A stretch of DNA of 64,000 nt from Blastocladiella emersonii ATCC 22665 (Eukaryota; Fungi; Blastocladiomycota): the NCBI GenBank assembly GCA_025594325.1, contig JANHCV010000002.1, forward strand, positions 1,612,001-1,676,000. The letters are read 5' to 3'. The notes beneath the pieces are model-generated. The model was not told where the DNA came from, searched no databases, and saw only the letters and a program-made list of their open reading frames with translations. Position numbers and translations under genes: made by a program. Of this stretch, positions 13,213 to 64,000 are shown one piece after another. Position 1 is the stretch's first letter; every line of letters starts with the position of its first letter.

Positions 13213-13277
13213 GGTGTATCTGTGTGTAGTGGAGAGAGTGTGTCGCGTATATAACTATATCTACGGCTACATTATCA

Positions 13278-14020: not shown

Positions 14021-14228
14021 CTATATCGACGTGGCCGTGGCGACTGACCGGGAGCGAGCTTGGTTGATGGCACGAATGATGAACTGCGGTGCGATCACGG
14101 TTCCATCACCGCATCGTCCTGGACGCGCTCTTGACGCGTCGGTGCGGCGCGGTCGACTAGTGCACAGAAGATCCGCTTGGAGCGAGTGGATCACAATCAA
14201 GAATGTTTTATGGTCGGACGAGATTAAC

Positions 14229-14893
14229 TTACGACTGCTGACCAGCGACCGACAGGCGACGGGCCTCTGCGCGTTCGTCGTCGCTGTCGAACCGCCCGTC
14301 GTCCTTGTACCAGTACGCCTTAGGAAGAGTGAGGCTCGTCGCACCCGCGAGGGCAATCTTAGCACGCACGATTTCAAGGTCAGCCAGCCAGACGCGCACC
14401 CGGGTCGCAACGAAGTATTATCGCACCATAGCAACGTCCTTGCCGAGCCGAACCCACCAAGCCGAGCTCGGCCACAACGCTTCGGCGGGCCCGTACTTGA
14501 TCACCACCGTCTCCGTCGCCGCAAAGTAGACGGGGAGGACGAGTTTCGGCGCCTGCAAGCCCGCGGAAAAGCGGCCGGTGAGCTCGCGGCGCAAGTAATG
14601 AATGTGCCGCGCGAGGTCGAAGAGGTACGCGGGAATCCAGGTGCAGAGCATGACGAGGAACAGGATGTCTACCCCTTGGTCGCTGCTCTCGCGCTGCTGG
14701 TCCACGGACGAGACGGCGCGAAGCTGCGCGGCGACGGCGCGGATCGCTGGGTACAGGTACACGACGGGAATGAGCTGCGCGGCGTTAGCGAGCGACAACA
14801 AGGCCGAAGACGCGTCGTGTGACGTACCAGCGAGAACGCGTGCGCGATCCAGCGTGCAGTCGGGATGCCGTTGAACAGCTCGCGTTGCCCCAT
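14229..14893 (-). CDS. Multi-TM family copy B (about 4 TM, 2 introns)
   Basis: Spliced model MGQRELFNGIPTARWIAHAFSL|LIPVVYLYP...DLARHIHYLRRELTG...KDVAM|IALAGATSLTLP...QQS-stop, with canonical GT..AG introns. Confidence 0.65.
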
Positions 14894-15556
14894 GTTAGGT
14901 CGGCTTGACTATCTGTACTGAGTATCGGAAGAGAACGAGGGATAACGTTTCGTTGAGGTGAGGAGCGCCGTTTCGCTGGCCGCGCAGGGTCTGCACCCGT
15001 TTGAGCTGTGAGCGCTGCTGCCATTGCGGCGCGAAACGAGCTGTCGCTCAGGCGAAACCCCGCCGACACGAGTTAAGTGCCCATGCGCGTACGGATTTGA
15101 CGGTCATGAAGCAATCGCAGCAGTCAAAGATCTTTTTGCAATCAAGCGATGCATTGACTGGTTGCAGAGTGAGGAGAGAGGACTCGAGACTCGGCCACAA
15201 GCGAGCAAACTCCGCAGATCACAGAGGACAGAGGAGGGAGCCCGGCGTGCTCGTTTGGAGTTTGACCGCACGCGCACGCGCCAAGTCGCAGGCACCACGT
15301 TTGGCATGTCGGCGCTGGCGTTCGCGAGCGCCTTTGAGTTCAGGCCGCCGCGGGCAGGCCGGATGTGAGTTGTCGCGCGCAATACACGTCCGTGTATCTC
15401 GACGCGTCTCACTTCTACCTCCTGCAAGTTGCATGTCAAGGTCGCGCGCCAGTTGTTCCGGCGGGGGCGATAAGAGCCATAACGGCTTGAGAAAAGCAAC
15501 GGATTGAACGATGTATCACGCAAGGAAGACGATGTAAAAGCGAGAGGCTGGCTGCC

Positions 15557-16257
15557 TCAGAGGGCCGTGGCAAGGTCGTAGCTGGGCGGCTGCTCAGCTT
15601 GGTCGCTGAGCGGCCGGTTCACCAGTCGGCCGCTTTCCTTGGTGCGCGTGACGCGAGAGTCGCGGTGAGCCGTGCGGTCGTCAAAGTTGCGCAGGAATCG
15701 CTTGGGCAGGTGGATCGCCGTCTCGATGCCAAGGAAGAGCTACTCGGGTAGGATGCGGTCAGTTCCGGGCTTCAAGGGCCGAGTCCGCCTCACGTACCAT
15801 CGCCACATCCTTGATGAGCCATAGAATGAGGAGGTTGGGCTGCAGCGCGCCCGTGCGGTTGTTGGAGAACCAAATGACCTCGGTGACGGCGAGGTAGACG
15901 GCAAAACCGACCTTCCATGGTCGAATCGCTGTAGCGTCGAACCGGCCGTGAAGCTCGTCGCGCAGGTGGTAGCCGTGAACAGCGAGGTCGGTCAAGTAGA
16001 CGAGGATCCAGCTGGACAGCAGCGCGATGAGACCGGAGCTCTCGGCCTCAGCGTCAGTCGAGCTGCGGCTTGCTGGTCCCACGGCCAGCAGGACGAGCAG
16101 CATGGACGCCGCGGAGATGATCTAGTTGAATGCGAATGAGATCAGACCATCGCTACTGGATATCGGTCCATTGTCGAAGACAGTGGGTGCAGCGTACAAG
16201 GAGCAGCAGGTGGAGGACGAGCCGCTTCGTCGGGAGCTGCTTAATTGCGCTCAGCAT
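15557..16257 (-). CDS. Multi-TM family copy C (about 4 TM, 2 introns, C-terminal PPSY)
   Basis: Spliced model MLSAIKQLPTKRLVLHLLLL|IISAASMLL...DLAVHGYHLRDELHG...WKVGFAVYLAVTEV...KDVAM|LFLGIETAIHLP...PPSYDLATAL-stop. Confidence 0.7.
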
Positions 16258-16673
16258 GGTTCAAGAATGACGTTGCGCCGAGTGAGAGGAGAGGTGGCGA
16301 AAAGCGGCCGCTTTATGTCGAAGGGAACAGTGGAACGAGGGGGAGAAAGGGCCGGAGGTGGGGACCCCACTGCACCGCATCGCTGGTTCGAAAGATTGAA
16401 CCTGGATTCAGGTCCCGCCGGCTGAGCTAACGCACCGCCTAGGCGGTCATCAGCTAAAGACCCGGCGGAGCAGGCGTCCTGTCTCAGCCTGGTTTCAAAT
16501 TGGCACGATAAAACTGAGTATAGCCGAAGGGCCGAACACGAGGGATGCGCCACGGCGGCGCACCGAGGCTGATGGGAACTGATGCGGGAGCACGTGAATA
16601 TCACATGATATCCCGACGCGTCTCAAGGGACCTTCTCGAGCGTCTGGTCAACAAGCGAAGGCTTATCTTATAG

Positions 16674-17000
16674 CTATAAGAACCAAACTAAAACGACTTG
16701 GGAGGTAACCGAGGAGCACTGCTGTGTGCTGAGTGGAGGTGCGAGCGAAGCTTGGCTTGGACGAGGCCGCGACGAGGAGGTCGTCGGATTGCTGAACTCA
16801 GCAATCAGCTTCACGGGAGCCCTCATTATCAAGTAGAATGGGCGATTGCGATGACCTGCATGCGTGTGCTCTGGTATTCAGCGGCACGAAAAGCGCTGCG
16901 AGCTGCCGGACTAACGTACGAGGAGCAGGAAGTGAGTGACTCTGCGTGCCGGCGAGACGCGCGAGCCGCTCTTGTTCGGCGACTGGGTAGAGGATGACAT
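16674..17000 (-). pseudogene. Multi-TM family copy E, frameshifted 5' fragment
   Basis: MSSSTQSPNKSGSRVSPARRVTHFLLL|GTACGT intron|VIAIA(frameshift)FYLIMRAPVKL...VWFL-stop matches copy D (RISPLRWLTHVLLA|AISIAPFYFIVVALFKL). Confidence 0.6.
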
Positions 17001-17953
17001 GTTCGAAAAGAGTGTTATGGTCAACACATCTTTGCGGGCCCCAGCGGGTTTTGATGTTCATCCGCTGCGAGGCGGCAGAGACCATCGTGGTAAGAACGCC
17101 ACTGGGGCCACCGCACACGTCCGCATCGCGCCAACCTCATCGATTTCCGTTGTCTTGCACAGTACATGAGCAAGCCCGTCGACGGCGGAACGTGCTGTGC
17201 TGCGGTGACCCGTTGATGAGCGTAGTGATCGCACGTCGCTGTGGCGCAACGCGATAACGCGTCCATCACCGCTGTCCGCGCACGCCAACCTTGCACTCGG
17301 AGAACAGCATGTAAGGTACTCTAAGCCTAGCCCTGCTCAAGACTGGTTTAGATATCACCATCAACGTTGAATGGAGGTGTGCGCTTCAAGTGGTTCGCAA
17401 GCATCTCCCACCCACCAAGTGTCGGAAAGGTTCCCCGCGCTCACACGCGCGCGTTGCCCCCCTTTTTGCTGGGTCTCGGCGCAGAGCACTCGTTGGTCCG
17501 TGGCTCACAAGCTTTGGGCGCAGCGCGTGCACACTTCGTCTGAAAGCCCCTGATAATAATAAATTAAATGTGTAAGCGTCGTGTGTATTGACGCTGCGTC
17601 GTATTCGGGCTGGCGGGAGCGATCCCTAAAATCGTTTTGCTTTAGTGTTGCGACAAGCTTTGAGTGTCCGGGTCGCTGTTGTCAAGGGCAAAAGCCCTGT
17701 AGCTGACGACCGCTACAGGACAACAGCCTTGATGGTAGTAAGCTCTGACGCGGCCATCCATCGATGGTGCTGCGCGTGCCCCGCCCTTCTCTACGCCGGG
17801 TAACAGCTGAGATTGATTGCGCGAACGTCCAGTTCCTTCGCGGTTCGTACTTAACCTCACCACTCGTCGACTAACATGAGAGAATCAGCGAAACCACTAG
17901 TTTATCCTTCGCACAACACACATGACAAGCATTGTACCGCCTTGGCCAAGGTT

Positions 17954-18847
17954 TCAAGAGGAAGTCGACGCAGCACTCGGTGGGACCAGCATCGTGTTGC
18001 TCGCCACAGAGTACGACGACTGCGGGCGCGGAGAAAGCAGTAGAGACGCCGTGGTCGAGCTGGGCCGGGCCGATCTGGATCTGGAACTGGAACTGATACT
18101 TGAGCGTGTACGCCGCAATGAGCGCTCGTCGCCCATGCCAGCTTTGGCGATCTCGCTTGGAAGAGTGAATCCGAGAGACATGGCCACGAAGAACTACACG
18201 AACGCTCCGCGCTGATGAGTCTACCGTGGTATTCGTAACGACAGTATCCGCGCGTACCAGGACCATATCCTTGATCAGCCAGACGAGGACCGAAGTCGGC
18301 CGAAGCGCCGTCTCCTTGCTTCCCGCGAACCAGAGGATCTCGGTGCTCGCCAGGAAAACTGAACCGAAGAGCTTCCAGTTGCGCAAGGTCATGGACGGGT
18401 TGCCGTGGAGCTCGTGGCGGACCTGTACCGCATGGAACACGAGGTCAAAGGGGGTGTACGCGAGCCACACCGAGAGAATGGAGATGTGGACGATGCGGTC
18501 GTTCTTTGCACTACCGAAACGGACGGCGCTTGTCGAGCCGCTGGACGATGGCTCAGCGCTCGGTGCGCCAGGACCTGCATCAAACTTGTCATCAAAAGTC
18601 AGCGGGTCGGTGCCCGCGGTGCCGGAGGACTCGTTCAGCTCGTTGGCGAGCTTGAAGAGCGCCACTACGATGAAGTAGAAGGGAGCAATGGAGATGGCCT
18701 ACGCCGCGGGTGCAAGGGTCAGTGAACAAACACGCTCCCATGCTCCGACACGGATAACCGTACAGCGAGGAGCACATGGGTCAACCAGCGCAGCGGCGAG
18801 ATACGCGGGCGGCTACTGTTTAGCTTCGTATACTCATTGCTGAACAT
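17954..18847 (-). CDS. Multi-TM family copy D (about 4 TM, 2 introns, Ser-rich tail)
   Basis: Spliced model MFSNEYTKLNSSRPRISPLRWLTHVLLA|AISIAPFY...DLVFHAVQVRHELHG...WKLFGSVFLASTEILW...KDMVL|FFVAMSLGFTLP...STSS-stop. Confidence 0.7.
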
Positions 18848-27218: not shown

Positions 27219-28494
27219 TCAGAGCTCCGAGCGGCGAGCCTTGATGCCATCAGTCTCGGCGGCCTTGTTACGGCACAGGTAAGCGCGCGGGAGACTCGAA
27301 TCAATGGGCGTCGCGCTGCCGGAAGCCGAACCGCCGTCGACCGAAAACATCATGAGCACGTTGCTCTGCTCCGTGTCCCAGCCGCGGAGCCAGACCTGCG
27401 CCTTCTGGCCGAGCGCCTCGAACACGATACGCGACGCCTCCTTGAACACGGCGTCCTCAGAGCCGTACAGCACGGCGGGCACCTTGCCAACGAGCGCGCA
27501 CTTGGTCCCGTACTCGAGGAACGGCCCAGCCGGACCGACGACCGAGAGACCGTCGAGGTTGCCGATCTTGAGCTCGGTCGCCTCGACCTTGTAGTTGGGC
27601 AGCGCGCCCGGCACCGTCTCGCACAGCGCATAGTGCGGGTTGCCGTCGGCCTGGTTCATGGACGCGCCCTTCTGCGACACGTACAGCGCGAGGTTGACGC
27701 CGCCGTAAGTGTTGCCGTCCCACGACGCGATGAAGAACTGCTCGACAGTCTTGGCACCTGGCAGCGCGAGCGCACCGCTTTCGCGTACGGCTACGGCGTT
27801 GCGTTCACGGTTAGCTTCGTGGGCCAATCGAGCAAATCGAGCGAGCGTACCGATCGCGGCGCTCTTCATGGTGCCCGCGTACACGTCGGCGAGGCGGAAA
27901 CCTTGGCCGCGACACGCACGCGCCGCCGCGTCAACGTCGGCGACCTTGGCCAGCAGGAGCGGAACAAACGCGGGCTTGTCGGACGGGCGCACAAAGGGGC
28001 CCGGCGAGACCTTGAACGCGCCGATGCCGCTATAAAACGGCGACGCCTGCACAACGAACTTGATGAGGTGCTGGCCGGGTGGAAGCGCAAACGCCGACCA
28101 GGAAAACCGACCCAGACGAAGTGCCTCGTCCGGGCTCGTGCCGTAGTCCATGCAGTTGATTTCCGTCGCCTCAAAGTGCTCCACGGCCGAGGAAAATGCT
28201 ATAAAACCGATTTGTAAGCAACTCGTGTAACGTGGCCGGCACGAGACGACTCCAACACGTACTGTACTGCGTGCTGTTGACCACCGGAATGTAAGTATCG
28301 CCAATGCACTGGAAGTCGGTCACGATGAAGTGTCCGGGCTGCGGCAGCGTTACCGTGAACTGCGGCGTGACGAAGCCCTGTTGGACGAATGGAAAGTAGT
28401 TCCAGGGGCCGATTTCCACTGCGCTCGTCTCAGCGGCCGTGGTCGTGGCCGCGATCAGCGCAAGGACGAGGAGGTTGAGGATCTTGATTACCAT
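27219..28494 (-). CDS. Secreted protein, tandem paralog 1 (beta-rich N-domain plus two C-type-lectin-like repeats), several introns
   Basis: Signal peptide MVIKILNLLVLALIAA. Motifs VTDFQCIGD, SPDEALRLGRFSWS, ACRGQGFRLA, FFIASWDGNTYGG. Ends KARRSEL like paralog 2. Confidence 0.75.
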
Positions 28495-28926
28495 GGCGCT
28501 AGCGGTGGTCTTGATGAAGGAGAACGGGTTGAACGAACACGAGGGGAGAATTTGAAGCGCCACGGCGCGCGTGCTGATCGAGCCCTGAAACGCGACGCGT
28601 TGGCTTCGCGCCGACCTCCCTCGGCCGCCGCAAAGTCGCCCGCTCCACCGCGCCTCACCGCACCAACCGCATCCACCGCATTCACCGCACCGCATCACAC
28701 CGCAAAAATACGGATTGCGTGGGAACGTATCACACTCGCGTGAGCGTTTGAGGCACAACTGCACGCGTGACGCGAGGGAAACGGCTCGTCACGGCCATGT
28801 CCGCGGCCACGGAAGCTCGCGACGAAAAGGGAGACGTGTAGTTATGAACTCGCTAGTGAGACAGTATTAGAGAGCAGAGCAATGTATACTGGTATCATGC
28901 ACATCGCTCTCGAGCAGCAAGCGAAC

Positions 28927-30282
28927 CTAGAGCTCAGAGCGGCGCGCCTTGACGACCACGCCCGTGCCGTCAGCCGGCGCCGGCGCGCCGCCGCCGTTGG
29001 CCGCCGTCTCCGTGGTATCGTAGTGACCGACGGGCTTGGTCTCCTTGCCGTTGTGGCACAGGTACGCGCGCGGGCGGTTCGAGCCGGCGATCGTGACCGC
29101 GCCGGGGCCCGAGACGGCGCCGACGGTGAGCGTCATGGACATGTTCTCCTGGTCCGTGTCCCAGCCGCGGAGCCAGACCTGGGCCATCGGGCCGAGCGCC
29201 TCGAACACGATGCGCGACGCCTCCTCGTACTTGGCGTTCTGGCCGCCGTACAGGATCGCGGGCACCTTGCCGACGAGCGCGCACTTGGCCGCGTAGTCCG
29301 AGTTGGGCCCGGCGGGGACCACGACGGCGAGCCCGTCGAGCGTGCCGACCTTGAGCTCGGTCGCCTGCACGGTGAAGTCGGGGATCGCCCCCGCCGTCGT
29401 CTCGCACAGCGGGAAGTGCGGGTTGGCGTCGGCGAGGTTGATGGTCGCGCCCGTCTGCGACACGTACAGCGCGAGGTTGTCACCGCCGTAGTTGTTGCCC
29501 TCCCACGACGCGACGAAGACCTGGTCCGCGCCGCCCGTCTCGGGCATCGTGAGCACGCCGCTCCCGCGCGCCGCTACGCGTGCGTGATTGAATACGGTTA
29601 GTGCGAGGCTTTCGAGCGAACGATATACGATGACACGTACAATCCTGGGCGTCCTTGAAGTTAGTCCCCGTGATCTCAGCGAGCCGCGCGCCCTTGGCGC
29701 CGCACGTGGCCTGGGCCTCGTCGACGTTGGCAACCTTGGCGTCGGCGAGCACGATGAACTGCTGTTTGGGCTTCTCGCTCACGAACGCGCCGGGCGCGAC
29801 CTTGAACTCGGCCTCGCCGCCCCAGTACGGCGACTTGGTGGTGAAGAACTTGATTGAGTGCGTGCCGGCGGCCAGCGGGTACGCCGACCACGAGTAGCGG
29901 CCCGAGTGGCGCGCCTCGTCCGGGTCCGTGATCGGGCGGTCACACGATTTGCCGCTCGCCTCGTAGTGCGCGGTGGCCGAGTCAAAGGCTAGTTGGCGAG
30001 AAGTGGTCAGCAGCTGAGTCGGCGCGGGTCTGAGCAAGGAGGAAAGTGCTGCGTACCGTACTTGACGCCGTCCACGATGGGAACGAGCGTATCACCGACA
30101 CAGTGCGTGTCGGTGACGACGAGGTGCCCGTCCTGTGGCAGGGTGACGGAAAAGTCGCCAAACTCCTTGCCCTCGTCGTAGTACTGGAACGGGGTCCAGG
30201 TGCCGGGCGTCACGTCGACCGACGCGGTGGCCGCGGACGCGAGCAGGGCCAGAACGAGCAGGTTGAGGATCGAGAGCTTCAT
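28927..30282 (-). CDS. Secreted protein, tandem paralog 2, several introns
   Basis: Signal peptide MKLSILNLLVLALLASAA. Motifs VTDTHCVGD, TDPDEARHSGRYSWS, TCGAKGARLAEI, VFVASWEGNNYGG. Ends KARRSEL. Confidence 0.78.
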
Positions 30283-52520: not shown

Positions 52521-53824
52521 ATGAAGTACTCGTCCTTGCCCGTTGCCCTCGTTCTTGCCCTGCTCCTCGTCTGCGTACTCGCGGCACACGGCTCGCCGCT
52601 TCCCAAGGGTGGTGGCGGGAGCGGCGGCAGCAGCGGCAGTGGTGGCAGCAGCAGCGATTCATCGGGATCCGGCTCGTCGACCTTGAGCACCCGCGACTAC
52701 GCGTGTACGAGCAAGCTCGTGTTGCTGCCGTACCGCACAATGCGCTGACCCTCCATCTTTCGAATTTAGCAAAGTACCCGTACGTCGTGCGCGGCCCGCG
52801 CGGCTACCCGGGATACTGGGTCCCGGCGAACCTCTACTACCAGGACTCGCGCCGCGGCTGCGTCTTCGTCTACGAGAACGGCTCCGTCGACGAACGGTCG
52901 TACCAGGCGACGTGTCCCGAGAACAACGACACGCTAATCCTCGCCGCCATGATCGGCGCCGGCCTCGCCCTCTTCGCGTGCGGCTCCTGCTGCATCTGCT
53001 TCCTGCGCCGCAAGTCGCGCCAGCAGGCCGCCGAGCGCGCCAAGGCCGAGAAACCGACCAGCGTCACCGTCGACGGCTCGCTCGCTGCGCCCGTGCACAA
53101 TGCCTCGGGCGACGCGGCCGCGGGCGCGCTCGAGTTCATCCGCGCCAACCCCGCGCGCCAGCTTGTTCTCGATGCGGCTCTACTCGAGCGCATGGCGTCG
53201 CCTGCGAGCTGGGCGTTCGAGGTCCCGCCCAAGCACGAGCCGTTTGTTGAGCTCGAGAACGGCGGCACCTGCGTCACGTTGTTCGGCCAGCCCATTGAGC
53301 GCACTGGCCTCGACACGGACCTCGCCATCACCTCAAACCTGTCGCTGCCGTTCGTCCCGCCGCCCTCGCGCAACACCCGCCCGACGCTCTACTTTGAGGT
53401 CACGATCGCCGCCATGGACCCGCAGACAACGGTTGCTGTCGGCCTGACCACCGTCCCGTGGCCGACGTTCCGCTTGCCCGGCTGGAACGAGTGGTCGGTC
53501 GGCTATCATAGCGACGACGGCCGCGTGTTCGTCTCGGACGACGGCAACGGCACCAACTACGGCAAGCCGTACCGCCTCGACGACGTGGTGGGCGTTGGCG
53601 TCAACACGGCCGATTGCACCGTGTTCTTCACTCGTAACGGCGTCAAGCTCGCGACTGTACCCGGCGCTCGCGTGCCCGCACCTCGCCTCGCCGTGCACCC
53701 TGCGATCGGCGCGGACGGCAAGTGCACGCTCGACGTCAACTTTGGCATGCGGCCGTTCAAGTGGGAGCCCGCGAACGAGGGCAGCTTTGGGCTCGCGCTT
53801 GATGTCCTGCCGCGGTACTCTTGA
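52521..53824 (+). CDS. Type I membrane protein with SPRY/B30.2 domain (Ssh4-like) and C-terminal LPxY, one intron
   Basis: Signal peptide, 2-Cys ectodomain, TM followed by a Cys cluster. SPRY motifs LYFEV, LPGW..SVGYHSDDG, DDVVGVG, VFFTRNG, VNFG..PF. Ends LPRYS. Confidence 0.85.
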
Positions 53825-53987
53825 GCAAGCGGTGTCGACCAGTGTTGTGCCTCCAATTCAACTTCTGTCGGCGAAAGGTGACGGGATCAGGGGAACTGGC
53901 GAGCAGGGGTTGCTGGCGAGCAACGCGGTGATCAACGAGCCGTCCCTGCTTTAATCTCTCCCTCGTACCTGAAAGCAAACCACGAAT

Positions 53988-55218
53988 ATGAAGCTAATGG
54001 AGGAACGACTACATGCAACGCGACTGCCAGACATGGTCATTGACCAAATTCTATGCTACGCCGTGCGGGCGACTGATCCCGACGACGTCAACCAGCTGCT
54101 TCAATACGGCCGCGTCCTGCTTCGCGAAGGAGCCCCTCGCGTCCACCGAGCGATCCAGAACCACATGATCTCAATCTCCATGGACGATGCCAGCGCGACG
54201 GAACGCTTGAACGTGCTTGACGCTTGGCGCCGGTCTGGGAAGCCCCTCGACTACTCTGCGCGCGCCATCACCGATGCGGCCCCGTCGTACAAGACGCTCG
54301 ACTGGTGGCGCCGCTCCGGTCTTCCGCTTCCCGATTGCATGGTCGGGCCGATGGTCAAGGTTCACTTCAACGGAATTTGCCAAATGTCCGAGGATGACGA
54401 TCATGTTGTACGTTGCATTTTTTGCTCAAAAAATTCGGGCCCTCTCGACTAACGCGATCATATCAGCAACTCGTGCGCCGTGACGATCCGCCAGGCGACA
54501 AGTATATCACGTCGAACTTCATCCCCAACGGGCTCGACGGTAAGCATTACCAGACCATGGTGTGGTGCAGTGGGATGCGCGTCACAAAGACTGGAGCGTC
54601 CGCCCTCGCCAAGGCTATGAACAAACCGATGATGAATGTTCAGGACGTCGAACTCAATTATTGTGACTTAACGTTCCCGGTTATCTGCGCGTTACAGCTA
54701 CCCGAATTGGTCTTGGAGCTTGAGCTCGGTTTCAACTGGGCAAGCGAAGGCGCTGCGGACTATGCTGCCAAGGAGGGCAACGTCTCGCCTTTTCCCCGCA
54801 CCTCCGCCGCCTTTCACTTCGCAGTAACATCCTTGGAAGCCCAAACGATGTCGACGCTCTCTTTCGTTCGTTGCCCTCATCGCTCACAGAACTCAACCTC
54901 TTGGGCACTTTTCTTGGCGCTGAAAACGCGGGCGTTCTCGCCGACTATCTCCCGCAAAGTCTCAAAACTCTGAACTTGTCTGAATGTCATCTCGACTCCC
55001 AGTGCGTGGAAGTACTTGCGCCGTGCCTCCCAAAGACTTTGTACAAGCTGTACTTGAACTCCAACAACATCACCGCAGTCGGCGCAGCCGACCTCGCGCA
55101 CCACTTCCCGCCACAGCTCTCCCTGCTTGATCTAAGCAACAACCCGCTTGGCGACAAGGGACTAGCTGCACTCTCCGCTGGACTCGGCGCGAGCCTGCAA
55201 CTGCTGTTGTTGTATTCC
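53988..55218 (+). pseudogene. LRR-family gene with a 1-nt frameshift (near 54801), truncated by the element insertion
   Basis: Family N-terminus (VIDQILCYAVRATDPDDV), intron 54408-54466, FPRT/LRRLSLRSN frame switch. LRRs run to GASLQLLLLYS and homology then stops at a palindrome. Confidence 0.8.
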
Positions 55219-55233
55219 TTAAGGGATACGACA
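55208..55233. repeat. Imperfect 12-bp inverted repeat at the junction (TGTTGTATTCCT-TA-AGGGATACGACA)
   Basis: 10 of 12 positions complementary; both mismatches are transitions. Confidence 0.8.
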
Positions 55234-55359
55234 TGGGCTGACCCACTGCCACTCGGGCTGACCAATTGCTTACCCCGAGCAGTTGGCGGCAGTCACTTGG
55301 GGTAACCACGTGAGACCCAGTTGCTTACCCCAGGTGGTTAATAATATGTTGGATTCTAA

Positions 55360-55386
55360 TGTCGTGTTCCCTTAGGGAACACGACA
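55360..55386. repeat. Perfect 12-bp inverted repeat (TGTCGTGTTCCC-TTA-GGGAACACGACA)
   Basis: Read directly. Each arm matches the junction palindrome arm at 9 of 12 positions. Confidence 0.9.
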
Positions 55387-55686
55387 CGCGGACGGAGGCT
55401 GAAGGCCAAAGCAGGTGGGCGGGAGGGTGGGTGGAAGGGAGGGGGCAAGTGGTCAAGGAGTGAGTCCTTGACCTGACCCCCAAGCCAGTCCCTGACCAAC
55501 CCCTTGGGCTGACCATTGCTTACCCCGAGCGGTCGGCGGCGGCCAGCGAGCGCAGCGAGACGAAGAGCAGCGCAGCTGCAGCTACCCACTGACAGAGTTC
55601 CCTGGTCTGGTCCCTGACCTGACCCCCAAGCCCGTCCCCAACCACCTGCCGCAAGCGGCTGCTATGAAGCCACTCACCGCGCCAAC

Positions 55687-55754
55687 CTCCACTTTCATGG
55701 CATATTGCGACAGAGTATATATATACACTACCCTTTTTTGCCATGAAAGTGGAG
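55687..55754. other. Concentric dyad: perfect 16-bp inverted repeat around a 12-bp AT palindrome (origin-like)
   Basis: CTCCACTTTCATGGCA (55687-55702) and TGCCATGAAAGTGGAG (55739-55754). GTATATATATAC (55715-55726) has the same centre, 55720/55721. Confidence 0.8.
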
Positions 55755-55925
55755 ATTGTCAGAGACAGAGGTCAGGGTACGGGGGGGAGGTCAAGGACAG
55801 GGGAGTGTCCTTAGCAGCATCAATGTATTGGGCAGGACAGGGTCAGGGGTACAAGGTCAAGGCAGAGGAGCGTCTTAGCAGACAGCGTCTTAGCAGGAAG
55901 GCAGCGTGGCAGGTCATGGAGGGTC

Positions 55926-58900
55926 TTAGAGCTCGTTGTTGTCCTCGTTGTCGTCCTCGTCCTTGTCCATCTCCAGGACAAACGGCGCCGAATTGGCCGG
56001 GGGTCGGTTCCAGGTCTTGTACATGACAAAGTACAGAATGTCGTCTGTCCACTTCAGGTTACTGTACTTCTTGCCGCGTACTGAGACCCGGGGTTCGTCC
56101 TTGTCTGGCACAGCAAGGCACTTGTTAAAGTAGGTGCCAAGAAGCCTGTTTAGGACTGTTGCTGTGTCACACTTGTAATACCCAAGCTTCTTGAAGTACT
56201 TGTGGATGTCTGCTTCAAACTTGGCGGGGATGGTGGCCTGGATGTTGAACTCCTTGGACGTGCGGAGGTCCATGTCGTTGTGTTCCAGGAGCTTGTGCAG
56301 GACGTGGCCCTTGTCCTTGGTGTAAAAGTGCTGGATACGCTCCATGAAGCTCTCCGCGTTGTCGTCCCAGATGATCTTCATGTTGTCCATGCTCAGACCA
56401 TTGAACTTGTGGATGAAGAAGGCCTTGCGGATGGAGAGGGAGATGATCCAGTCCGGGTCCTTGATGGTACCTTTGCAGTAGGCACGCATGAGCTCCTTGG
56501 ATGGTGGCTGGACGTTTGCCCATTCGAAAGACCAGCCCGACGTCATGATATCCTTAATCTCAGGGTGCGCCTTGTAGTAGTACTCGGGGGAGTCGTCCAT
56601 GACAACGTTGGCGACCTTGCGGAAGGCGTCAAAGACCTTGAGGCAGAAGGTCACAGCGGCCATCTCGTTCTCAAGATCCGTGTTCTTGACAATAGCCCGG
56701 TGAGGTTTGCCGACCGAGTCCGAGTCAATGACCTGTAACTTGTTCATGTACGCGCCGTGGCAACCATTGCTGATCATAAACACGATCTTGTTGTCAATGG
56801 GGTAGCGCACGCGGTAGATTGCCTGGAAGAAGTTGCGGGCAGGGACCCAGGACTTGTAGCGCGCGTACACCTTGTGGAAGACGTCTGGCTTTGAAAAGTT
56901 GACCCCCACAGTGATCTTGAGGTTGGCAATGACTATACGGACCGTATCATTGCCCCACACAGAGTCAGGGTCAATGAGTTCCTTGTCCTCGTGGTTGGGG
57001 CGGTCGCCGTGGTAGAGCTTGATCTGCTTGCCAATCTTCCACGTCTCCTCGGCAAAGACCCGCTCGAGGTACTTGCCAAAGGTCTGCACCGACCACTTGG
57101 TTGACTTCTTGCATGGTCGTGGGAGGAAGAGGTAGAGCTTCTTGTTGGCCTTGAGGTCGGCAATGATGTTGCTCTCCATGATGTCTTCGGCGGACTTCTT
57201 GTTGTCCTTGTCGTCAGTGATGAGGCTCATCTTGCGCGGCTCAAAATTCTTGCCGAGCGTGTTCGTGATCACCTTGATCTTACCATGGAGTATGGTCTTG
57301 ATGTTGTGCTCGACAGTAAAGGAGCGGAGGACATCCATGGTCAGGTTTGTGACAAACGCGTCCATGAAGATACCCTTGCTGCCCTTGTGCTCGCACAGCG
57401 TCTTGAAGGCCTTGAGGTTGGCCTTGAGGTTGTTGCAAATGGTGGTTGTGTGCAACTTGGCGTCCTGGAACATCTTGAGGACCGTCTCGGACTCATCCAC
57501 CACAACAATGTTGTAGGGCTCGGTCAAGTAGTGCAGCAAGCACGGCGAGACAATGAGTTGCTTGTGATCCCCCAGTGTCTTCTTGTCCTTGATGCTGCGG
57601 TAGTTGACAAAGCCAAGCTTCTGTTCGCGGGCTCGACCCTCGGTGTTGTGGGCCAGGGTGATGCGAGGTGTGATCCAGACCACTCGCGCGTCTGGGTACT
57701 TGGCAATGTAGTCGCAAACAGCGCCTGTCTTGTTGGAGCCCATGCCCGTGGCCAGCACGTTGAACTTGGCCTCGGTAATGTCGTTGCAGCTCAGGAACTG
57801 GTTGGGGCTGGTGACGTCCACCGGTACCTCAAGCGACTGCTCAAACTTGGCCATGGCCTTGGACTTGAACGCGTCTGGGAACCGCTTGTAGAAGATGGCC
57901 TTGACGAACGTGTCCAGCACCTGGTAGTTGTCGTTGCTGGCAATCTCGTTCCATCGGTCCCAGTACTTTTGCATGCGCTGAGCCGAGTTGTCCTGCTGCG
58001 ACGTCCACGCCCAGAACTGGTCAAATGTGACCCCTTTGCGCATGGCCCATGTCATGATCCGCCAGGTCACGTTGTTGTGGAACGCGTTCTTGGGGCTGAT
58101 GGGGATGTTGTGGAGGATCTTGAGGGGCGTGGCGTCGTAGTAGAAGAAGTCAGGGTTGATCTGCACGTCCTTGAACTTGGGGATGTCAAGGTTGTAGTTG
58201 AGGCGACCCGCGTGGCGCTTGGTCCGCGCTTCCTTGGCCTTGGCAGTCACAAACTCTTCAAAGGACAGGTCCGAGACCGACGCGCAGTTGGGGTCAAAGT
58301 CGCACTGGATCAAGTGCTTGGACAGGCGGTCCTTGTTACCCGAGATCCACACGCCAGGTGTCTTCTTGGGCTTGGACTGGTTGATGCACTTCATGAAGCG
58401 GTGCTTGCTGTACACGCTGGAGTCAAAGCCAAGCTTGACGTGGTCGGGGTGGCTGCAGAACAGCTTCAGGAACGGCATGTCCTTGAGCGTGACTGTGTAG
58501 TTGCTGAGGACAATGTGCCATGACTTTTTGAGGTCTGTCTCATAGCCGCAGACCTGGAGGTTGGCGCCGGGGAACTGGGCCAGGATGACCTTCTTGATGA
58601 CGTCCAGGGTCACGTCCTTGCAGTTGCCTGGGCAGTCAATGTCAAAGTAGACCTTGGACAGGCGCTCAGGGTGGACCATCTCCTGGATGCAGCGGTTCTT
58701 GTTGAGGAGCCTGGCCAGGTCAGCTGTCTTGACCTTGGCAAAGTAGTGCGCCGCCTTGGGTTGGCTGTGGTTGTCGACGCCCTTGTTGATGAGGCGCTTG
58801 ATGACCGTCTTGTCGTCTTGCAGCTCGGACAAGAGCTTGCACTGAGGGCCCATTTCATCACCACCTTCATCCTTGCCATGGTACCACTGGAGACCAAAGG

Positions 58901-58940
58901 ATTTGCCACCTGCATTTTTGGGGACCGTCTTGCAGACCAT
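55926..58940 (-). CDS. AEP (PrimPol-like) primase + PriCT-like + herpes UL9-like SF2 helicase fusion (about 1004 aa)
   Basis: ATG at 58940 (MVCKT). AEP motifs YFDID, KSWHIV, FDSSVYSKHRFMK. Helicase motifs TGMGSNKT, VVWITPR, VVVDESE, MDAF, ITVGVNF, FQAIYRVR. Confidence 0.85.
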   Translation of the reverse strand: MVCKTVPKNAGGKSFGLQWYHGKDEGGDEMGPQCKLLSELQDDKTVIKRLINKGVDNHSQPKAAHYFAKVKTADLARLLNKNRCIQEMVHPERLSKVYFDIDCPGNCKDVTLDVIKKVILAQFPGANLQVCGYETDLKKSWHIVLSNYTVTLKDMPFLKLFCSHPDHVKLGFDSSVYSKHRFMKCINQSKPKKTPGVWISGNKDRLSKHLIQCDFDPNCASVSDLSFEEFVTAKAKEARTKRHAGRLNYNLDIPKFKDVQINPDFFYYDATPLKILHNIPISPKNAFHNNVTWRIMTWAMRKGVTFDQFWAWTSQQDNSAQRMQKYWDRWNEIASNDNYQVLDTFVKAIFYKRFPDAFKSKAMAKFEQSLEVPVDVTSPNQFLSCNDITEAKFNVLATGMGSNKTGAVCDYIAKYPDARVVWITPRITLAHNTEGRAREQKLGFVNYRSIKDKKTLGDHKQLIVSPCLLHYLTEPYNIVVVDESETVLKMFQDAKLHTTTICNNLKANLKAFKTLCEHKGSKGIFMDAFVTNLTMDVLRSFTVEHNIKTILHGKIKVITNTLGKNFEPRKMSLITDDKDNKKSAEDIMESNIIADLKANKKLYLFLPRPCKKSTKWSVQTFGKYLERVFAEETWKIGKQIKLYHGDRPNHEDKELIDPDSVWGNDTVRIVIANLKITVGVNFSKPDVFHKVYARYKSWVPARNFFQAIYRVRYPIDNKIVFMISNGCHGAYMNKLQVIDSDSVGKPHRAIVKNTDLENEMAAVTFCLKVFDAFRKVANVVMDDSPEYYYKAHPEIKDIMTSGWSFEWANVQPPSKELMRAYCKGTIKDPDWIISLSIRKAFFIHKFNGLSMDNMKIIWDDNAESFMERIQHFYTKDKGHVLHKLLEHNDMDLRTSKEFNIQATIPAKFEADIHKYFKKLGYYKCDTATVLNRLLGTYFNKCLAVPDKDEPRVSVRGKKYSNLKWTDDILYFVMYKTWNRPPANSAPFVLEMDKDEDDNEDNNEL

Positions 58941-58978
58941 GTTGTTATGATGAGGTAACAGAAAAGGTGACAGGACAG

Positions 58979-58992
58979 GTGCGTTTAAACGC
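58979..58992 (-). promoter_or_regulatory. Element promoter motif GCGTTTAAACGCAC upstream of the primase-helicase
   Basis: Ends 38 nt before ATG 58940; a near-identical motif precedes the recombinase gene. Confidence 0.55.
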
Positions 58993-59104
58993 GCAGGATT
59001 TAGCGTTAATGACTGGGCCCGGGAGCCCTTGCTGGCATGACCCATGACTTGCCACTGTCCAGGCCCATCTAACCTTGCATGACCTGACCCTGACCCAGAC
59101 ACGA

Positions 59105-59540
59105 CCTCCCCCATGAGCCCGACTTGGGAACCAGCAGGGTCCGAGGTCACGACCACCAAACCGTGACCTGGTAAGCGACTGAGTCCGAGGTCACGACCCT
59201 CCCATGCTCCCAACTTGGGAGCCAGCAGGGCCCGAGGTCACGATCCTTGAACTGTGACCTGGGCAGCGACTGAGGGCAAAGTCACCGACCCCCCATGCTC
59301 CCGACTTGGGAGCCAATTGCGTCTCAGGTCACGATCCTTGAACCGTGACCTGGGCAGCAACTGAGGGCAAAGTCACCAACCCCCCATGCTCCCGACTTGG
59401 GAGCCAGTAGGGTCCGAGGTCACAACCCCCATGAGCCCAACTTGGGAGCCAGTAGGGTCCGAGGTCACGACCCCCATGAGACCAACTTGGGAGCCAGTAG
59501 GGTCCAAGGTCACAAACCTCTCAAACCGTGACCTGGGCCC
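59105..59540. repeat. Tandem array: three 91-bp units then 45-bp units, with internal palindromes
   Basis: Anchor CCATG..CCCRACTTGGGA at 59111, 59202, 59293, 59384, 59429, 59474 (spacings 91, 91, 91, 45, 45). Confidence 0.9.
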
Positions 59541-59609
59541 TCCCACGGTCCATGACTTGCCACCATCATGACCCTGACCCAGGCCCAGCTACCCAGAAAA
59601 AAGAACGTT

Positions 59610-59623
59610 GCGTTCAAACGCAC
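59610..59623 (+). promoter_or_regulatory. Element promoter motif GCGTTCAAACGCAC upstream of the recombinase
   Basis: Ends 39 nt before ATG 59663. Confidence 0.55.
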
Positions 59624-59662
59624 TTGAGCCCATGGAGCCTTTTTGTTGACAGTCAGTAAACC

Positions 59663-60805
59663 ATGGCGCTTGACTCTCTTGCCTCCCAGGTCGCCATTGC
59701 CCTCGCTCAGCACTTTGCCGCCGATGTAGTGCACCAAGTGCTCAATGGTATCAAGCCGCTGCTGGCATCCTTTGACGAGCGGCTCAAGGGAGTTGAGACC
59801 AGCCTCGCCGCGCTGGCTGCAGTGTTGCGTAACTGCAATCACCGTCCCAATCACACCCCCGTCGACGAGTCTGGCGAGCCCATGGACACTGATCCCCAGG
59901 TCAAGTACGTGCAGATGACCGAGGAATCCATTGCGGCGTGCGTCAATGCGCGTGTTCAGAACAAGCACGGGGAACTGGTTGAGCTGAGCGACACGGACAA
60001 GGCCAAGGCATCCCGCGTGCTCTGTGCCTTTGCCAAGTCGGGCATGGACATTGAAGACGTTGATGCCGTGTCCAAAGCTGTGGCAGCGTACCACGCGTCC
60101 AAGGGCGAGCAGGGGCTGCAGGTTGAGACGCTCAAGGCCCTGGCCAAGTACTGCACCTGGAATGGTCAGCCTGAACTTGGGGCCAAGTACACAGAGGCCA
60201 AGAAGCAGGACGCTGCCGACTTCTGCAACGCGCGCAAGGAACTCGAGTCTGGTGCGCTCCCGAGCCGTGACGCCATTCGCACTGCTATTGTTGATGCAAA
60301 GGGCTGGGACTCGGGCACGGGGCTTCTGCGTCTGTACCTCCAAGTCGTGAGTGCAGTGCGCAGCGACCCCGCGTTCCTGACCACAAAGCCAATCACTGGG
60401 TACCCGTACTACGACCCAGAGACCCAGATTCTGGCCAGCAATGTCATTGTCAAGACAGAGGGCTGTGGCTACAACTTCTCGCACACAGTTAGTGAGCCCA
60501 AGGTCGCCGCCGCTCTTGAGCGTATCATTGCCCAGCGTCTTGCCAAAGGCCATGACTTTGTCTTCAACAACTACACCTGCGAGGAGCTCAAGGACACCAT
60601 GCTCCGCAAGAGGGTTAGCAACACCTGGTGCAAGTCAATTCACCGGGCTGCAGAGACAGTTGGCTTTGAGGATGGCGGCGTGGCAGTGATCCGCCGTATC
60701 TCCACCAGCGAGAACTTTGCCGCGCAGCAAGCTATTGCTGACCGCGCACACGAGATGGGTCACAGCGTCCCTGTTGCCCTGACCTACTACATGACGCCTC
60801 AGTAA
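59663..60805 (+). CDS. Tyrosine recombinase of the virophage/PLV type (380 aa)
   Basis: Catalytic order R (SAVRSD), K (IVKT), xxxR (AVIRR, His absent), H (MGHS), Y (TYY) near the C-terminus. Confidence 0.75.
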   Translation: MALDSLASQVAIALAQHFAADVVHQVLNGIKPLLASFDERLKGVETSLAALAAVLRNCNHRPNHTPVDESGEPMDTDPQVKYVQMTEESIAACVNARVQNKHGELVELSDTDKAKASRVLCAFAKSGMDIEDVDAVSKAVAAYHASKGEQGLQVETLKALAKYCTWNGQPELGAKYTEAKKQDAADFCNARKELESGALPSRDAIRTAIVDAKGWDSGTGLLRLYLQVVSAVRSDPAFLTTKPITGYPYYDPETQILASNVIVKTEGCGYNFSHTVSEPKVAAALERIIAQRLAKGHDFVFNNYTCEELKDTMLRKRVSNTWCKSIHRAAETVGFEDGGVAVIRRISTSENFAAQQAIADRAHEMGHSVPVALTYYMTPQ

Positions 60806-60833
60806 TCCTTTTGTCTCCGCCTTTGTTAATACA

Positions 60834-61946
60834 ATGTATGCCCACGAAGAGCCGCTCACAGACGCACAGCAAGCATTCCTGACAGACTTGTACTACAAGC
60901 ACGGCCACGTAGGTGTTGGCATCCGTTGGCTCTTTGACATTGTGTCCAGAGAGAACACAGGGAAGCACATCTACCGCGCCCAGCTAGAGAGATGGCTCGG
61001 CAAACAGTCTGTGAGGCAGCAGTACAAACGCGCACCTCAGAAGCGCCAAGACATTCGAAGCATCAACTCAACAAGTCCTGGCCGCAACTTTCAGCTCGAC
61101 CTCATTGACATGGGCGAAAACGGTACGTACAAGGGCTTCCGTTACATTCTCACGTGTGTCAACCTGGCGAGCCGCCGCGTCTACCTCCAACCCATCAAGA
61201 CCAAGGACAAGACGCGGGAAGCATGGTCCAGCGTGGTCGCCAAGCACAGCCTTGCACCTGCCACGATCCAGACGGACAATGGGACCGAGTTCTTTGGAAT
61301 AGAGGCCGGGACCAAGGCCAAGCACATCAAGGGCAAGGCAGGAGTGCCATACGGTCAAGGTGTCATTGAGCGTATGAACGGGACCATCCGCCGGATGCTC
61401 ACACCGTGGCTGTCCATCCCGGGCAACAACGACTGGCCCAAGCACCTCGAGACCATTGAATCTGTCATCAACAGCAGCAAGTCGAGGGCCACGGGCAGGG
61501 CGCCCAACGAGTTCCATGACATGCCCCGCAAAACGGCCAAGGAAGAGCTCAAGGCAATCCGAGCTGCCAAGGGCAAGCCCGAGGGCAACCCTCTGAGCGC
61601 GTTGCTGAAGGTAGGGACCCAGGTCCGAGTCCGCGAGCCGTACAAGACTGCCATGGAGGCCAAGGGGAAGCCGGTCTGGTCGCCGACCGTGAGCCAGGTC
61701 CAGGTCGTGCGCAAGGGGTCGGGCGTGAGCAAGCCAAGCTACAAGGTCCAAGGCCTCAAGGGCTTCTACCCTCGAAGCGACGTCCAGCCAGTCACAGCGA
61801 CCCAGGACCCGCCAACAAGGCAGCGCGTAGGTCCAGGTCTTCCAAGGCTCCCTGTTGCGCGCACCCCAGTCACGCCAAGGGAGCCCTCGACCCGGGTCAG
61901 GCGCGTCCCAGTCCGAGTCCAAGAAAAGTGGGACCGCGGGCTTTAG
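60834..61946 (+). CDS. Retroviral-like (rve) DDE integrase, Maverick/Polinton type (370 aa)
   Basis: QLDLIDM, YILTCVNLASR, IQTDNGTEF, IERMNGTIRR, INSSKSRATGRAP. C-terminal KVGTQVRV..WS..YKV. No gag, RT or RNase H nearby. Confidence 0.92.
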   Translation: MYAHEEPLTDAQQAFLTDLYYKHGHVGVGIRWLFDIVSRENTGKHIYRAQLERWLGKQSVRQQYKRAPQKRQDIRSINSTSPGRNFQLDLIDMGENGTYKGFRYILTCVNLASRRVYLQPIKTKDKTREAWSSVVAKHSLAPATIQTDNGTEFFGIEAGTKAKHIKGKAGVPYGQGVIERMNGTIRRMLTPWLSIPGNNDWPKHLETIESVINSSKSRATGRAPNEFHDMPRKTAKEELKAIRAAKGKPEGNPLSALLKVGTQVRVREPYKTAMEAKGKPVWSPTVSQVQVVRKGSGVSKPSYKVQGLKGFYPRSDVQPVTATQDPPTRQRVGPGLPRLPVARTPVTPREPSTRVRRVPVRVQEKWDRGL

Positions 61947-63886
61947 AGCAGGGTCCAGTGGCTTTGAATGATGACCTGGCAGTCGTTGGCAACTGCGACT
62001 GACGGGATCCAGATGAAAGAGTAGCTCTTGGCCGCGTCAAGGTACTCAATGCTCGAGAACTGAAGGAACTGGACATTGCCTTCAGCACGGCACCCGGTGA
62101 CAAGCGACACTGCAATCATGTCCGTCATATTGTACAGCGCAAAGTTCACAGTGTGGGCTCCAGGGAGCGCGCCGTTTGCGTAGTAGCCCTTTGCATGGAC
62201 GAGGTAGTAGCCACTGACAGGGGGTTTGACGCATCCATTGATCACAGACGTGAACGCGCCCGCTGTGGACTGGAACGCAAAGGTGGCCGGGCCCGTTGAT
62301 GCTGTGCCGCCAATGATCTTGCCGCCCGTGGTCACTCCATTTGTAGAGCGGTGCTCGGCCTGAGCGACGTACCGGGTCGTGCCAGACCGCGAGTCAACGT
62401 ACGCCTTGTTTGCCGCGTTGGTGCCTGCCACTGGAGCAAGGTCAAGGGTGAGCTGCCCTGTGAAGCGACCAGTGCCATTGACGCGGAACCTTTCTGTGCC
62501 AAGCGTCGCCGAGCCCACGACCACATTGCCGCCACCTGCCACAAGGGAGACCCCGCCTGTGGTCGCAGACGCATTCTCAATGTTACCCGCCGCTGTGCAT
62601 GCCAGGTTGCTTCGCAGTACGCCTGCCTGCTTAAAGTCGACGTACGTCAATGTATTGGCAGCCGAGTCAAAGACAAGGTTCGCGCTTGTGGCATTCCGGA
62701 CCAGGACGTTGGGCACAGTCAGTTGCTTGCCAACTCCAAGACCACCAGCAATGGTGACTGCTCCAGTGCTTGATGTCAAACTGTCCGTCGTATTTGCAAA
62801 GGCAAAGGCAGCGCCGAGTCCAAGGGTGGACTGGGGGAGCGTGCCAGTGACCGAGGCTGCGCTCACGGCCGTGACCTTGGCCGAGACGTCGGGGAGTCGT
62901 GCCAGGTCAATGGTCCCTGCAAGCTTGGCCGAGTCAATGCCAGATGCCAGCTTGGCGTTGGTCAGGGTCCCGTTGGCGATGCGGGCAGGGTCAAGGATCC
63001 CAGTGAGCTTGACCGCCGACACGTCCGCGACCTTGGCGTCCGTGACTGCGCCTGCTGCCAGGTGGGCTGTTCCAATGGACCCGACGTTGAGCTTGCCCCC
63101 ATCAATGCCAGTTGCCAGCTTGGCGTTGGTCACGGCCGCGTCTGCCAGGACCAGGGAGCCAACCGTGCCTGCTGCCAGCTTGGACCCGTCGATGCCAGCT
63201 GCCACCTTGGCGTTGGATACAGCACCGTCTGCCAGGGCTCCCGTCCCAATAGTCCCTGCAACGAGCTTGGACCCAGACACAGACGCGACCTTGGCATCTG
63301 TGACTGCCAGGTCGATGAGAGCCACTGTGCCGACTGTGCCTGCCACGAGCTTGGACCCAGACACGGACGCGACCTTGGCATCAGTCACTGAGCCGTCTGC
63401 CAGGACCGAGGTCCCAACTGTGCCTGCCACGAGCTTGGACCCAGACACCGACGCGACCTTGGCATCAGTCACTGAGCCGTCTGCCAGAACCGAGGTCCCA
63501 ATGGCTGGGAGGTTGGACGCACTGAGTACGCCCACAACCTTGGACGCAGACACAGTGTCCAGCTGAGCATCAACGAGCTTGCCTGTGACCTGCCCTGCTG
63601 TAATCGTGGCGACCTTGTCGGCCGTGATGCTGGCTGGGAGCAGCTGTGCCGTACCAACCGACTTGACATAGAGCCCTGCTGCGCCCACGCCAAGGGTCTG
63701 GTTGTCGACCTTGGCCGACACAGTGGTCCCTGAGACTGCCACGCCAGGGCCAGCAACAGGTGTGCCAACCGTGGCGTACACGGCACTGATGGCCGCATCA
63801 ACGTAGGCCTTGGACACGTCCGGGACCCCCGTGGTAGACACGGTCAGAGACGCAGTACTTGAGACGTTAAAGATATTCTTGACCAT
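61943..63886 (-). CDS. Virion fibre/adhesin-like protein with 28-29-aa shaft repeats and a C1q-like head (about 647 aa)
   Basis: ATG at 63886. KAYVD motifs, about 6 repeats of GTSVLADGSVTDAKVASVSGSKLVAGTV, TGAVTIAGGLGVG, head with PPVSGYYLV. Confidence 0.75.
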   Translation of the reverse strand: MVKNIFNVSSTASLTVSTTGVPDVSKAYVDAAISAVYATVGTPVAGPGVAVSGTTVSAKVDNQTLGVGAAGLYVKSVGTAQLLPASITADKVATITAGQVTGKLVDAQLDTVSASKVVGVLSASNLPAIGTSVLADGSVTDAKVASVSGSKLVAGTVGTSVLADGSVTDAKVASVSGSKLVAGTVGTVALIDLAVTDAKVASVSGSKLVAGTIGTGALADGAVSNAKVAAGIDGSKLAAGTVGSLVLADAAVTNAKLATGIDGGKLNVGSIGTAHLAAGAVTDAKVADVSAVKLTGILDPARIANGTLTNAKLASGIDSAKLAGTIDLARLPDVSAKVTAVSAASVTGTLPQSTLGLGAAFAFANTTDSLTSSTGAVTIAGGLGVGKQLTVPNVLVRNATSANLVFDSAANTLTYVDFKQAGVLRSNLACTAAGNIENASATTGGVSLVAGGGNVVVGSATLGTERFRVNGTGRFTGQLTLDLAPVAGTNAANKAYVDSRSGTTRYVAQAEHRSTNGVTTGGKIIGGTASTGPATFAFQSTAGAFTSVINGCVKPPVSGYYLVHAKGYYANGALPGAHTVNFALYNMTDMIAVSLVTGCRAEGNVQFLQFSSIEYLDAAKSYSFIWIPSVAVANDCQVIIQSHWTLL

Positions 63887-63906
63887 GTTTAACCTTAAGC
63901 AACAGA

Positions 63907-64000
63907 ATGATTTCCAGCGACCATGACCTGAGCCTGGACGAGTGGCAGGAGCACCTCGCCGGGACCATGCCCGTGCCAAGCAGCTGGTACAGCAAGAGCG
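63907..64000 (+). CDS. Possible start of the next element gene (MISSDHDLSLDEWQEHL...), open to the window end
   Basis: 31 open codons only, divergent from the fibre gene. Confidence 0.25.
   Translation, partial: MISSDHDLSLDEWQEHLAGTMPVPSSWYSKS

Follow-up and report, generated by a model that had tools for sequence, protein, structure and literature searches.

At the right edge of a 64,000-nt stretch of the Blastocladiella emersonii ATCC 22665 genome (contig JANHCV010000002.1, positions 1,612,001 to 1,676,000; the whole stretch is called the window below), a block of long ORFs follows a truncated host gene, which raises the question whether this zoosporic fungus carries an integrated DNA virus. 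At least 8.8 kb of the element lie within the window, which covers its left part only and ends at the window edge 64000. The DNA is the left end of an element present in many copies, which is likely (probability of about 0.8) an endogenous polinton-like virus (PLV) with capsid and packaging genes predicted beyond the window. A preliminary description of this DNA had already proposed an endogenous PLV. The insertion into a host gene, the multi-copy family, the gene set and the affinity to PLVs and virophages agree with that proposal, whereas the window contains no capsid or packaging gene.

Four stop-free ORFs are present at 55926-59114 (minus strand), 59663-60805 (plus), 60834-61946 (plus) and 61943-63886 (minus). 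The gene order from the left end is: end, primase-helicase, tyrosine recombinase (YR), retrovirus-type integrase (rve) and fibre. These ORFs had been described as packed with spacings of 28 and -4 nt, and both spacings were recovered: YR and rve are separated by 28 nt, and rve and fibre overlap by 4 nt. The word ‘packed’ does not extend to the helicase, which has non-coding stretches of ~720 nt on both sides (718 nt from the element end to the helicase stop codon, 722 nt between helicase and YR). A fifth ORF probably begins at 63907 on the plus strand and continues past the window (63907..64000); its 31 codons have G or C at 28 of 31 third positions. The start codons of the fibre gene and of this ORF stand back to back (63886-63907), 20 nt apart, and promoters would have to overlap the ORFs. 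The earlier contrast between an intronless element and an intron-containing host is weak, because several nearby host ORFs are also long and unbroken, such as a dynein ORF of 3877 codons. Element and host are told apart much better by their CpG content.

For depth and junction data, contigs of four runs (X1-X4) were aligned to window positions 53000-64000. The left boundary was set at 55208, since other flanks join there, depth jumps and contigs bridge the junction; this is 11 nt left of 55219, and the element begins with TGT. Of the 13 loose contig ends listed between 55150 and 55420, 8 are found before 55206-55208, and 55219 has none. They show a minimum of four other flanks joined at 55206-55208, one of them on a 9,973-nt contig at single-copy depth. 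Summed contig depth, which is not equivalent to copy number, rises across 55208 from 149 to about 10,000-18,000. For X1, five of six host bins have values of 149-272 (the sixth 580), and all 24 element bins have values of 1,455-11,601; this step recurs in the other three runs. In X2 and X3, contigs span 55207/55208 with 0 differences, reaching 39 nt into the element, and the join is thereby borne out against a chimeric origin.

The proposed insertion into a host gene was correct, apart from its start, which had been placed at 55219. An in-frame ORF of a host leucine-rich repeat (LRR) family gene (53988..55207, plus strand; the target site, outside the element) is cut at 55207/55208, and the frame 54763-55218 matches LRR_6 with an E value of 1e-12. 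In blastx, three frames of the interrupted gene match its LRR paralogs (121 and 7692); the gene was already broken over several frames upstream of the insertion. It has single-copy depth and host-like CpG (C3pG1 observed/expected 1.09). Two of the other flanks at 55208 are alike (consensus agreement 0.72), hence, the target of some copies may be a repeated host sequence or a different mobile element.

The primase-helicase gene (55926..58940, minus strand, 1004 aa) likely starts at the ATG at 58940, because related copies begin there. Its N-terminal part (DxD at 100-102, H142) we take to be of the archaeo-eukaryotic primase (AEP) type, in view of the DxD and His motif pattern. It is combined with a superfamily 2 (SF2) helicase resembling UL9, the herpes origin-binding protein (OBP), with Walker A GMGSNKT and Walker B DESET. 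A Pfam search gave no match for the window protein; Herpes_ori_bp (PF02399) was above the cut-off in all three close relatives tested. In a Foldseek search with a low-confidence AlphaFold model (pLDDT 50), the top PDB match was the HSV-1 OBP (E 6e-12), and the BFVD matches were giant-virus OBPs or primase-helicases. A PDB sequence search returned nothing useful. Relatives, folds and motifs together support the primase-helicase proposed beforehand. As is typical of PLVs, a primase-helicase stands in place of a protein-primed DNA polymerase (pPolB), which was not detected in the 8.8 kb within the window. AEP-SF2 fusions are a sizable minority in the PLV group, according to the available text of 10.64898/2026.10.13.758929. 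The Walker B motif reads DKSET in 3 of 13 other B. emersonii copies. The P-loop (residues 397-405) is GMGSNKT in 17 of 19 fungal rows and GxGKT in all five metagenome rows, i.e., a lineage-wide change.

The rve gene (60834..61946, plus strand, 370 aa) encodes a retrovirus-type DDE integrase with intact D89-D148-E179, of which D148 and E179 are invariant in the aligned relatives. The window protein itself matches Pfam rve below the cut-off (E 5e-5), all 17 aligned relatives match it, and 3,437 relatives were found at E 0.001. The best PDB matches are the HTLV-2 and PFV integrases, and the Atlas gives 0.97 to viral rve clusters. Thus, the Polinton-type rve was recognized correctly, and this gene provides both the integration enzyme expected of PLVs and the rve of Maverick/Polintons. 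The gene upstream of it (59663..60805, plus strand, 380 aa) likely encodes a tyrosine recombinase, judged from its motifs and Atlas neighbours. R233, K264, xRR at 343-345, H367 and Y375/376 follow the residue order R-K-xRR-H-Y of tyrosine recombinases, and the Atlas gives 0.98 to virus clusters (most commonly Preplasmiviricota) and 0.97 to a cluster with 16% Phage_integrase. The two integrases of the preliminary description are therefore reduced to a firm rve and a likely YR. Two divergent recombinases, P0039 (H9P43_009747) and P0026, have a common N-terminus and a different catalytic half, which suggests module swapping among copies. The fourth gene (61943..63886, minus strand, 647 aa) encodes a fibre-like protein with 28-29-aa repeats (84/87 bp in the DNA), a Phage_Tail_Tip match above the cut-off (E 5e-10) and PHROG tail-fibre matches, in line with the fibre gene assumed earlier.

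The closest named proteins are from B. emersonii ATCC 22665, as expected for a zoosporic-fungus host. Named relatives in this species comprise 13 helicases (57-93% identity), 19 YRs, 9 fibre representatives (77-98% identity in all nine) and 2 rve models. The gene tags of helicase, YR and fibre form 22 clusters, i.e., further loci, on 11 megabase-sized contigs with conserved order; a genome-wide count by named relatives thus yields at least 22 further loci. A YR tag adjoins the helicase tag in 11 of 13 cases and the fibre tag in 8 of 9, three helicase-YR-fibre triplets occur, and two clusters are only 12 gene tags apart. At two loci, rve tags complete a helicase-YR-rve run and one gene model is a YR-rve fusion; therefore, rve is part of the element and not a passenger nested at one site. 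A quick helicase tree groups the 14 Blastocladiella sequences in a single clade (support 96) whose terminal branches are short, compatible with a family that expanded within the genome. Relatives outside the genus were found in Allomyces, namely the helicase in three species (44-50% identity; A. macrogynus 44-46%) and rve in two (39-40%). Two of these relatives lie on contigs of 14.6 and 15.0 kb, which is PLV-sized, as PLV genomes measure about 14-40 kb. Neither a scan of genome contigs nor a tblastn search against phages gave a match.

CpG observed/expected is 0.72 in the element and 1.28 in the host, with TpG and CpA raised in the element. At codon junctions, all four element genes have values of 0.53-0.66, compared to 1.08-1.31 in all eight host ORFs, LRR paralogs included. 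The 49 listed differences between copies, the best-supported among more than 600 rows, include 44 transitions, of which 33 fall in CpG context versus 29% expected from the background. This pattern of substitutions makes CpG decay due to host methylation likely.

Since no capsid gene is visible, the prediction of a capsid-encoding element depends on three lines of evidence: capsid loci in metagenomes, a PLV in Allomyces macrogynus and the conserved fibre. Seven of 81 metagenome candidates encode an AEP-SF2 helicase like that of the window. Five of the seven loci were read, and three of the five have capsid genes. Locus L001 contains a virophage-type major capsid protein (MCP; PF21915, E 9e-20), an ATPase and a YR-like gene; its helicase is the best blastp match among the metagenome helicases (30%). 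Locus L002 encodes an A32 ATPase (E 2e-13), a YR-like gene and, in our reading without a Pfam match, a PLV-like MCP. Locus L003 has a virophage-type MCP (PF22031, E 3e-5), and in L004 and L005 (~5 kb each) no capsid gene was seen. The L001 record (22,795 nt; also L009) is a 95%-complete virophage-like genome with genes for MCP, penton-like, protease-like, fibre-like and YR-like proteins, an ATPase and the AEP-SF2 helicase. Scans of viral contigs with the helicase, A1, rve, A2, the L002 helicase, A5 and P0169 found no locus, and a scan with the L001 YR found only its own genome. For A. macrogynus, an integrated PLV with MCP, ATPase and DNA helicase was noted in 2021 by Bellas and Sommaruga, and the MCP was placed among PLV/Polinton MCPs (PMC7805220, main text in part).

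Several observations weigh against an endogenous PLV in the form proposed. In the four ORFs within the window, neither MCP, penton nor A32/FtsK ATPase was detected by Pfam or PHROGs. The capsid-bearing metagenome loci are distant, with 24-30% helicase identity and long branches in the quick tree. The A. macrogynus MCP is not tied to AMAG_18661 or AMAG_19449 in the available text of PMC7805220, and no row of the supplement concerns Allomyces. Virus lineages exchange replicases, and replicase type does not predict MCP type (available text of 10.64898/2026.10.13.758929); thus, the helicase cannot decide between PLV and virophage. No relatives of YR and fibre were found in Allomyces. The YR assignment is weak: no confirmation came from Pfam, PHROGs, PDB sequence search, hhalign, an HMM or a fold search. 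A fold search with its AlphaFold model (pLDDT 40) gave 0 matches at E 0.001, hhalign against the metagenome YRs gave E 0.21 and 0.084, and with an HMM built from three YRs the window protein scored below 5 of 500 shuffles; an unrelated-protein control gave E 0.46. Depth and junctions come from one sample of one study, possibly the source of the window itself, and the window does not reach the right end, which would show a terminal inverted repeat (TIR) and a target-site duplication. The virus could already have been low in CpG when it arrived, and CpG methylation on a giant-virus insert was reported for one Allomyces strain and not for another (PMC13533422, text seen in part).

A minor share of the probability given above is assigned to a true virophage with a Sputnik/mavirus-type capsid and maturation protease, dependent on a fungal giant virus, instead of a PLV. 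The virophage-type MCPs of L001 and L003 would fit, as would the combination of rve, YR and primase-helicase, which is the set of mid-GC EMALE virophages, and giant viruses integrate in Allomyces (PMC13533422, in the part available). However, L002 combines a similar helicase with a PLV-like capsid, the GC content of the element (~58%) differs from the AT-rich metagenome loci, and, in the accessible texts, the A. macrogynus MCP groups with PLV/Polinton MCPs (PMC7805220) and MCP type does not follow from replicase type (10.64898/2026.10.13.758929). We therefore regard this form of the element as unlikely.

Still less probable is a capsid-less, self-replicating transposon or transpoviron-like element with a kept fibre-like gene, spreading inside the genome or in the particles of another virus. 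More than 20 copies, TG ends, an intact DDE integrase and 8.8 kb without a capsid gene are compatible with transposition, and some fungal Polintons have no detected MCP (PMC7805220, available text). Nevertheless, the fibre is kept in every named representative at the identities given above, three of the five metagenome loci read have capsid genes, and the same source reports MCP, ATPase and helicase for the A. macrogynus element.

The edge of a giant endogenous virus (Mycodnaviridae-like) is very improbable. Polinton-like integrases occur on five Mycodnaviridae MCP contigs, giant-virus OBP helicases are among the top fold matches, and some rve clusters of the Atlas belong to Nucleocytoviricota, but 22 dispersed loci with an identical order of the four genes, two of them 12 gene tags apart, do not suit inserts of up to 350 kb, nor do two Allomyces relatives on ~15-kb contigs. 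Giant-virus core genes were not detected in the 8.8 kb of the element within the window. An assembly chimera or contaminant, for which it speaks that all four runs are one sample and contigs only, has a negligible chance in view of the exact bridging contigs in X2 and X3 and of the presence of relatives in three Allomyces species as well as on 11 contigs of megabase size.

The left terminal non-coding region of the element (55208..55925, 718 bp), in which depth is highest and at whose outer edge (55206-55208) the flanks join, likely holds a TIR and an origin. It starts with a 26-bp near-perfect palindrome (55208..55233) beginning with TGT and having two C-to-T mismatches (DNA fold z -3.35; 1 of 200 shuffles as good). 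A second palindrome of like build (55360..55386; TGTC...CCC-TTA-GGG...GACA, 12-bp arms) folds with z -7.29 (0 of 200 shuffles as good). In an X1 contig with a loose end before 55383, this palindrome has other arms with full pairing kept, and in X3 it has one mismatch; pairing maintained in spite of altered arms suggests conservation of the structure itself. A long inverted repeat (55683..55758; z -6.0, 0 of 200 shuffles as good) has 20-bp arms and the AT-rich core TATATATATA and is a candidate replication origin in view of its likeness to herpes oriS. An Rfam match to mir-2059 at 55690-55751 (33.8 bits, gathering threshold 90) was rejected as a hairpin look-alike. A reading in which the left arm of the terminal palindrome is an attB site of the host, used by the YR, was dropped because other flanks join at 55206-55208. 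Contigs part from the window at 55415, 55617 and 55679; subfamilies may account for this, or the right-hand TIR may have its inner edge there. The 722 nt that separate the divergently oriented genes of helicase and YR contain tandem 45/91-bp repeats (59108..59538), which are candidate binding sites (iterons or promoter). One 12-bp palindrome (GCGTTYAAACGC) occurs at both 58981-58992 and 59610-59621, ~40 nt upstream of each divergent start. It is a candidate shared promoter site; its count was equalled in 7 of 100 shuffles with one mismatch allowed.

For the PLV, the following mode of propagation can be proposed. A linear genome with TG-initial ends would be inserted by the rve integrase into host DNA, with little preference for particular sites. 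Replication would begin with the AEP-SF2 protein, which would recognise the palindromes near the end, melt the AT-rich core and make the primers, taking the place of a protein-primed polymerase. At the terminal palindromes, the recombinase may excise genomes, close them into circles, resolve them or bring them into the DNA of a helper giant virus. Particles would attach by the fibre, and CpG methylation by the host likely keeps the copies silent and wears them down. Extended to its full form, an intact and inducible small dsDNA virus of fungi would act as a virophage-like defence against giant viruses of Blastocladiomycota while midway through replicon turnover, with rve at the TG ends, YR on the terminal hairpins and CpG methylation silencing the 20-plus copies until a giant virus or stress arrives. 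This full scenario is tentative and, taken as a whole, doubtful.

The kind of element is already known, from a PLV in Allomyces, the EMALE gene set and the module of end, helicase and YR. The Blastocladiella family, its terminal hairpins and the CpG decay were not found in the literature searched; supplements outside this search (10.1101/2025.04.19.649669, covering 153 fungal assemblies with viral regions, and 10.64898/2026.06.19.733378) may list the element. The A. macrogynus PLV shares a blastocladiomycete host, integration and a DNA helicase, and the two are likely one family; it was described by MCP, ATPase and helicase, without integrases, ends or copy number in the text available (PMC7805220). 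Mid-GC EMALEs, endogenous virophages of Cafeteria burkhardae (Hackl et al. 2021, PMC8547959, in part), have rve, YR and a long primase-helicase, lack pPolB and are integrated in many copies. They differ in their stramenopile host and mavirus-type capsid, the capsid of the present element being predicted outside the window. The gene set had been called unusual; it has a precedent in all mid-GC EMALEs, and a PLV was already noted in A. macrogynus. The PLV ‘end module’ of Barth et al. 2024 (PMC11296320) likewise places inverted repeat, primase-helicase and tyrosine recombinase at the genome end, and in its model of replicon turnover YR and rve would coexist at one stage. According to the part available, its helicases are D5-like, whereas the Blastocladiella helicase is a UL9-like SF2 protein and rve is kept with intact catalytic residues.

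The metagenome loci L001, L002 and L003 share the primase-SF2 helicase architecture and motifs, in L001 and L002 with a YR-like gene beside the helicase. They differ in helicase sequence (24-30% identity), AT-richness and the P-loop (GxGKT in 5/5 versus GSNKT in 17/19 fungal rows), and the L001/L009 record has no rve match, unlike the window element. With Maverick/Polintons (Polintoviricetes), the element has the rve integrase, multiple copies and terminal structure in common. It differs in its AEP-SF2 helicase, in the lack of pPolB in the part seen and in its TGT start; Polinton ends start with AG. PLVs integrated in zoosporic fungi are also known from Spizellomyces punctatus and from chytrid A32 ATPases (PMC7805220; 10.64898/2026.06.19.733378; both in part), in this case from another phylum, Chytridiomycota. 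A primase-helicase with YR or rve is usual in endogenous viral elements of protists, as far as the texts extend (PMC10120064, PMC4642659); the former survey excluded fungi. The accessible parts of PMC11071308, PMC5294986 and PMC5751038 do not show the Blastocladiella family, and the B. emersonii genome paper (PMC9730499) contains neither the word ‘transpos’ nor a viral passage in the text seen. The text seen of PMC12019607 gives no 5mC figures for Blastocladiomycota.

According to the part seen of a 2026 preprint (10.1101/2025.04.19.649669), no dsDNA virus has been isolated from fungi. With more than 20 copies in a culturable model fungus, at least one of which has all catalytic motifs intact in the part seen, a fungal dsDNA virus becomes directly testable, and the element offers a possible route to growing a small DNA virus from a fungus. 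Giant viruses of Allomyces (PMC13533422, available text) are candidate helpers, so that a triangle of host, giant virus and parasite could be tested in fungi. Both integrase types beside an origin-binding helicase and defined hairpins are suited to dissect the roles of these enzymes in PLV integration.

Host genes in the neighbourhood of the element are the dynein heavy chain-like ORF mentioned above (3877 codons; our reading), SPRY and Ulp1 genes and the LRR paralogs. The LRR family members at 121-1965, 7692-9467 and 53988-55207 have a third-position GC content of 0.65-0.70, compared to 0.88-0.97 in core host genes. At 27219-30091 of the window, tandem related ORFs with a KARRSEL ending are found, which probably form an intron-containing family of secreted or ER-retained proteins.

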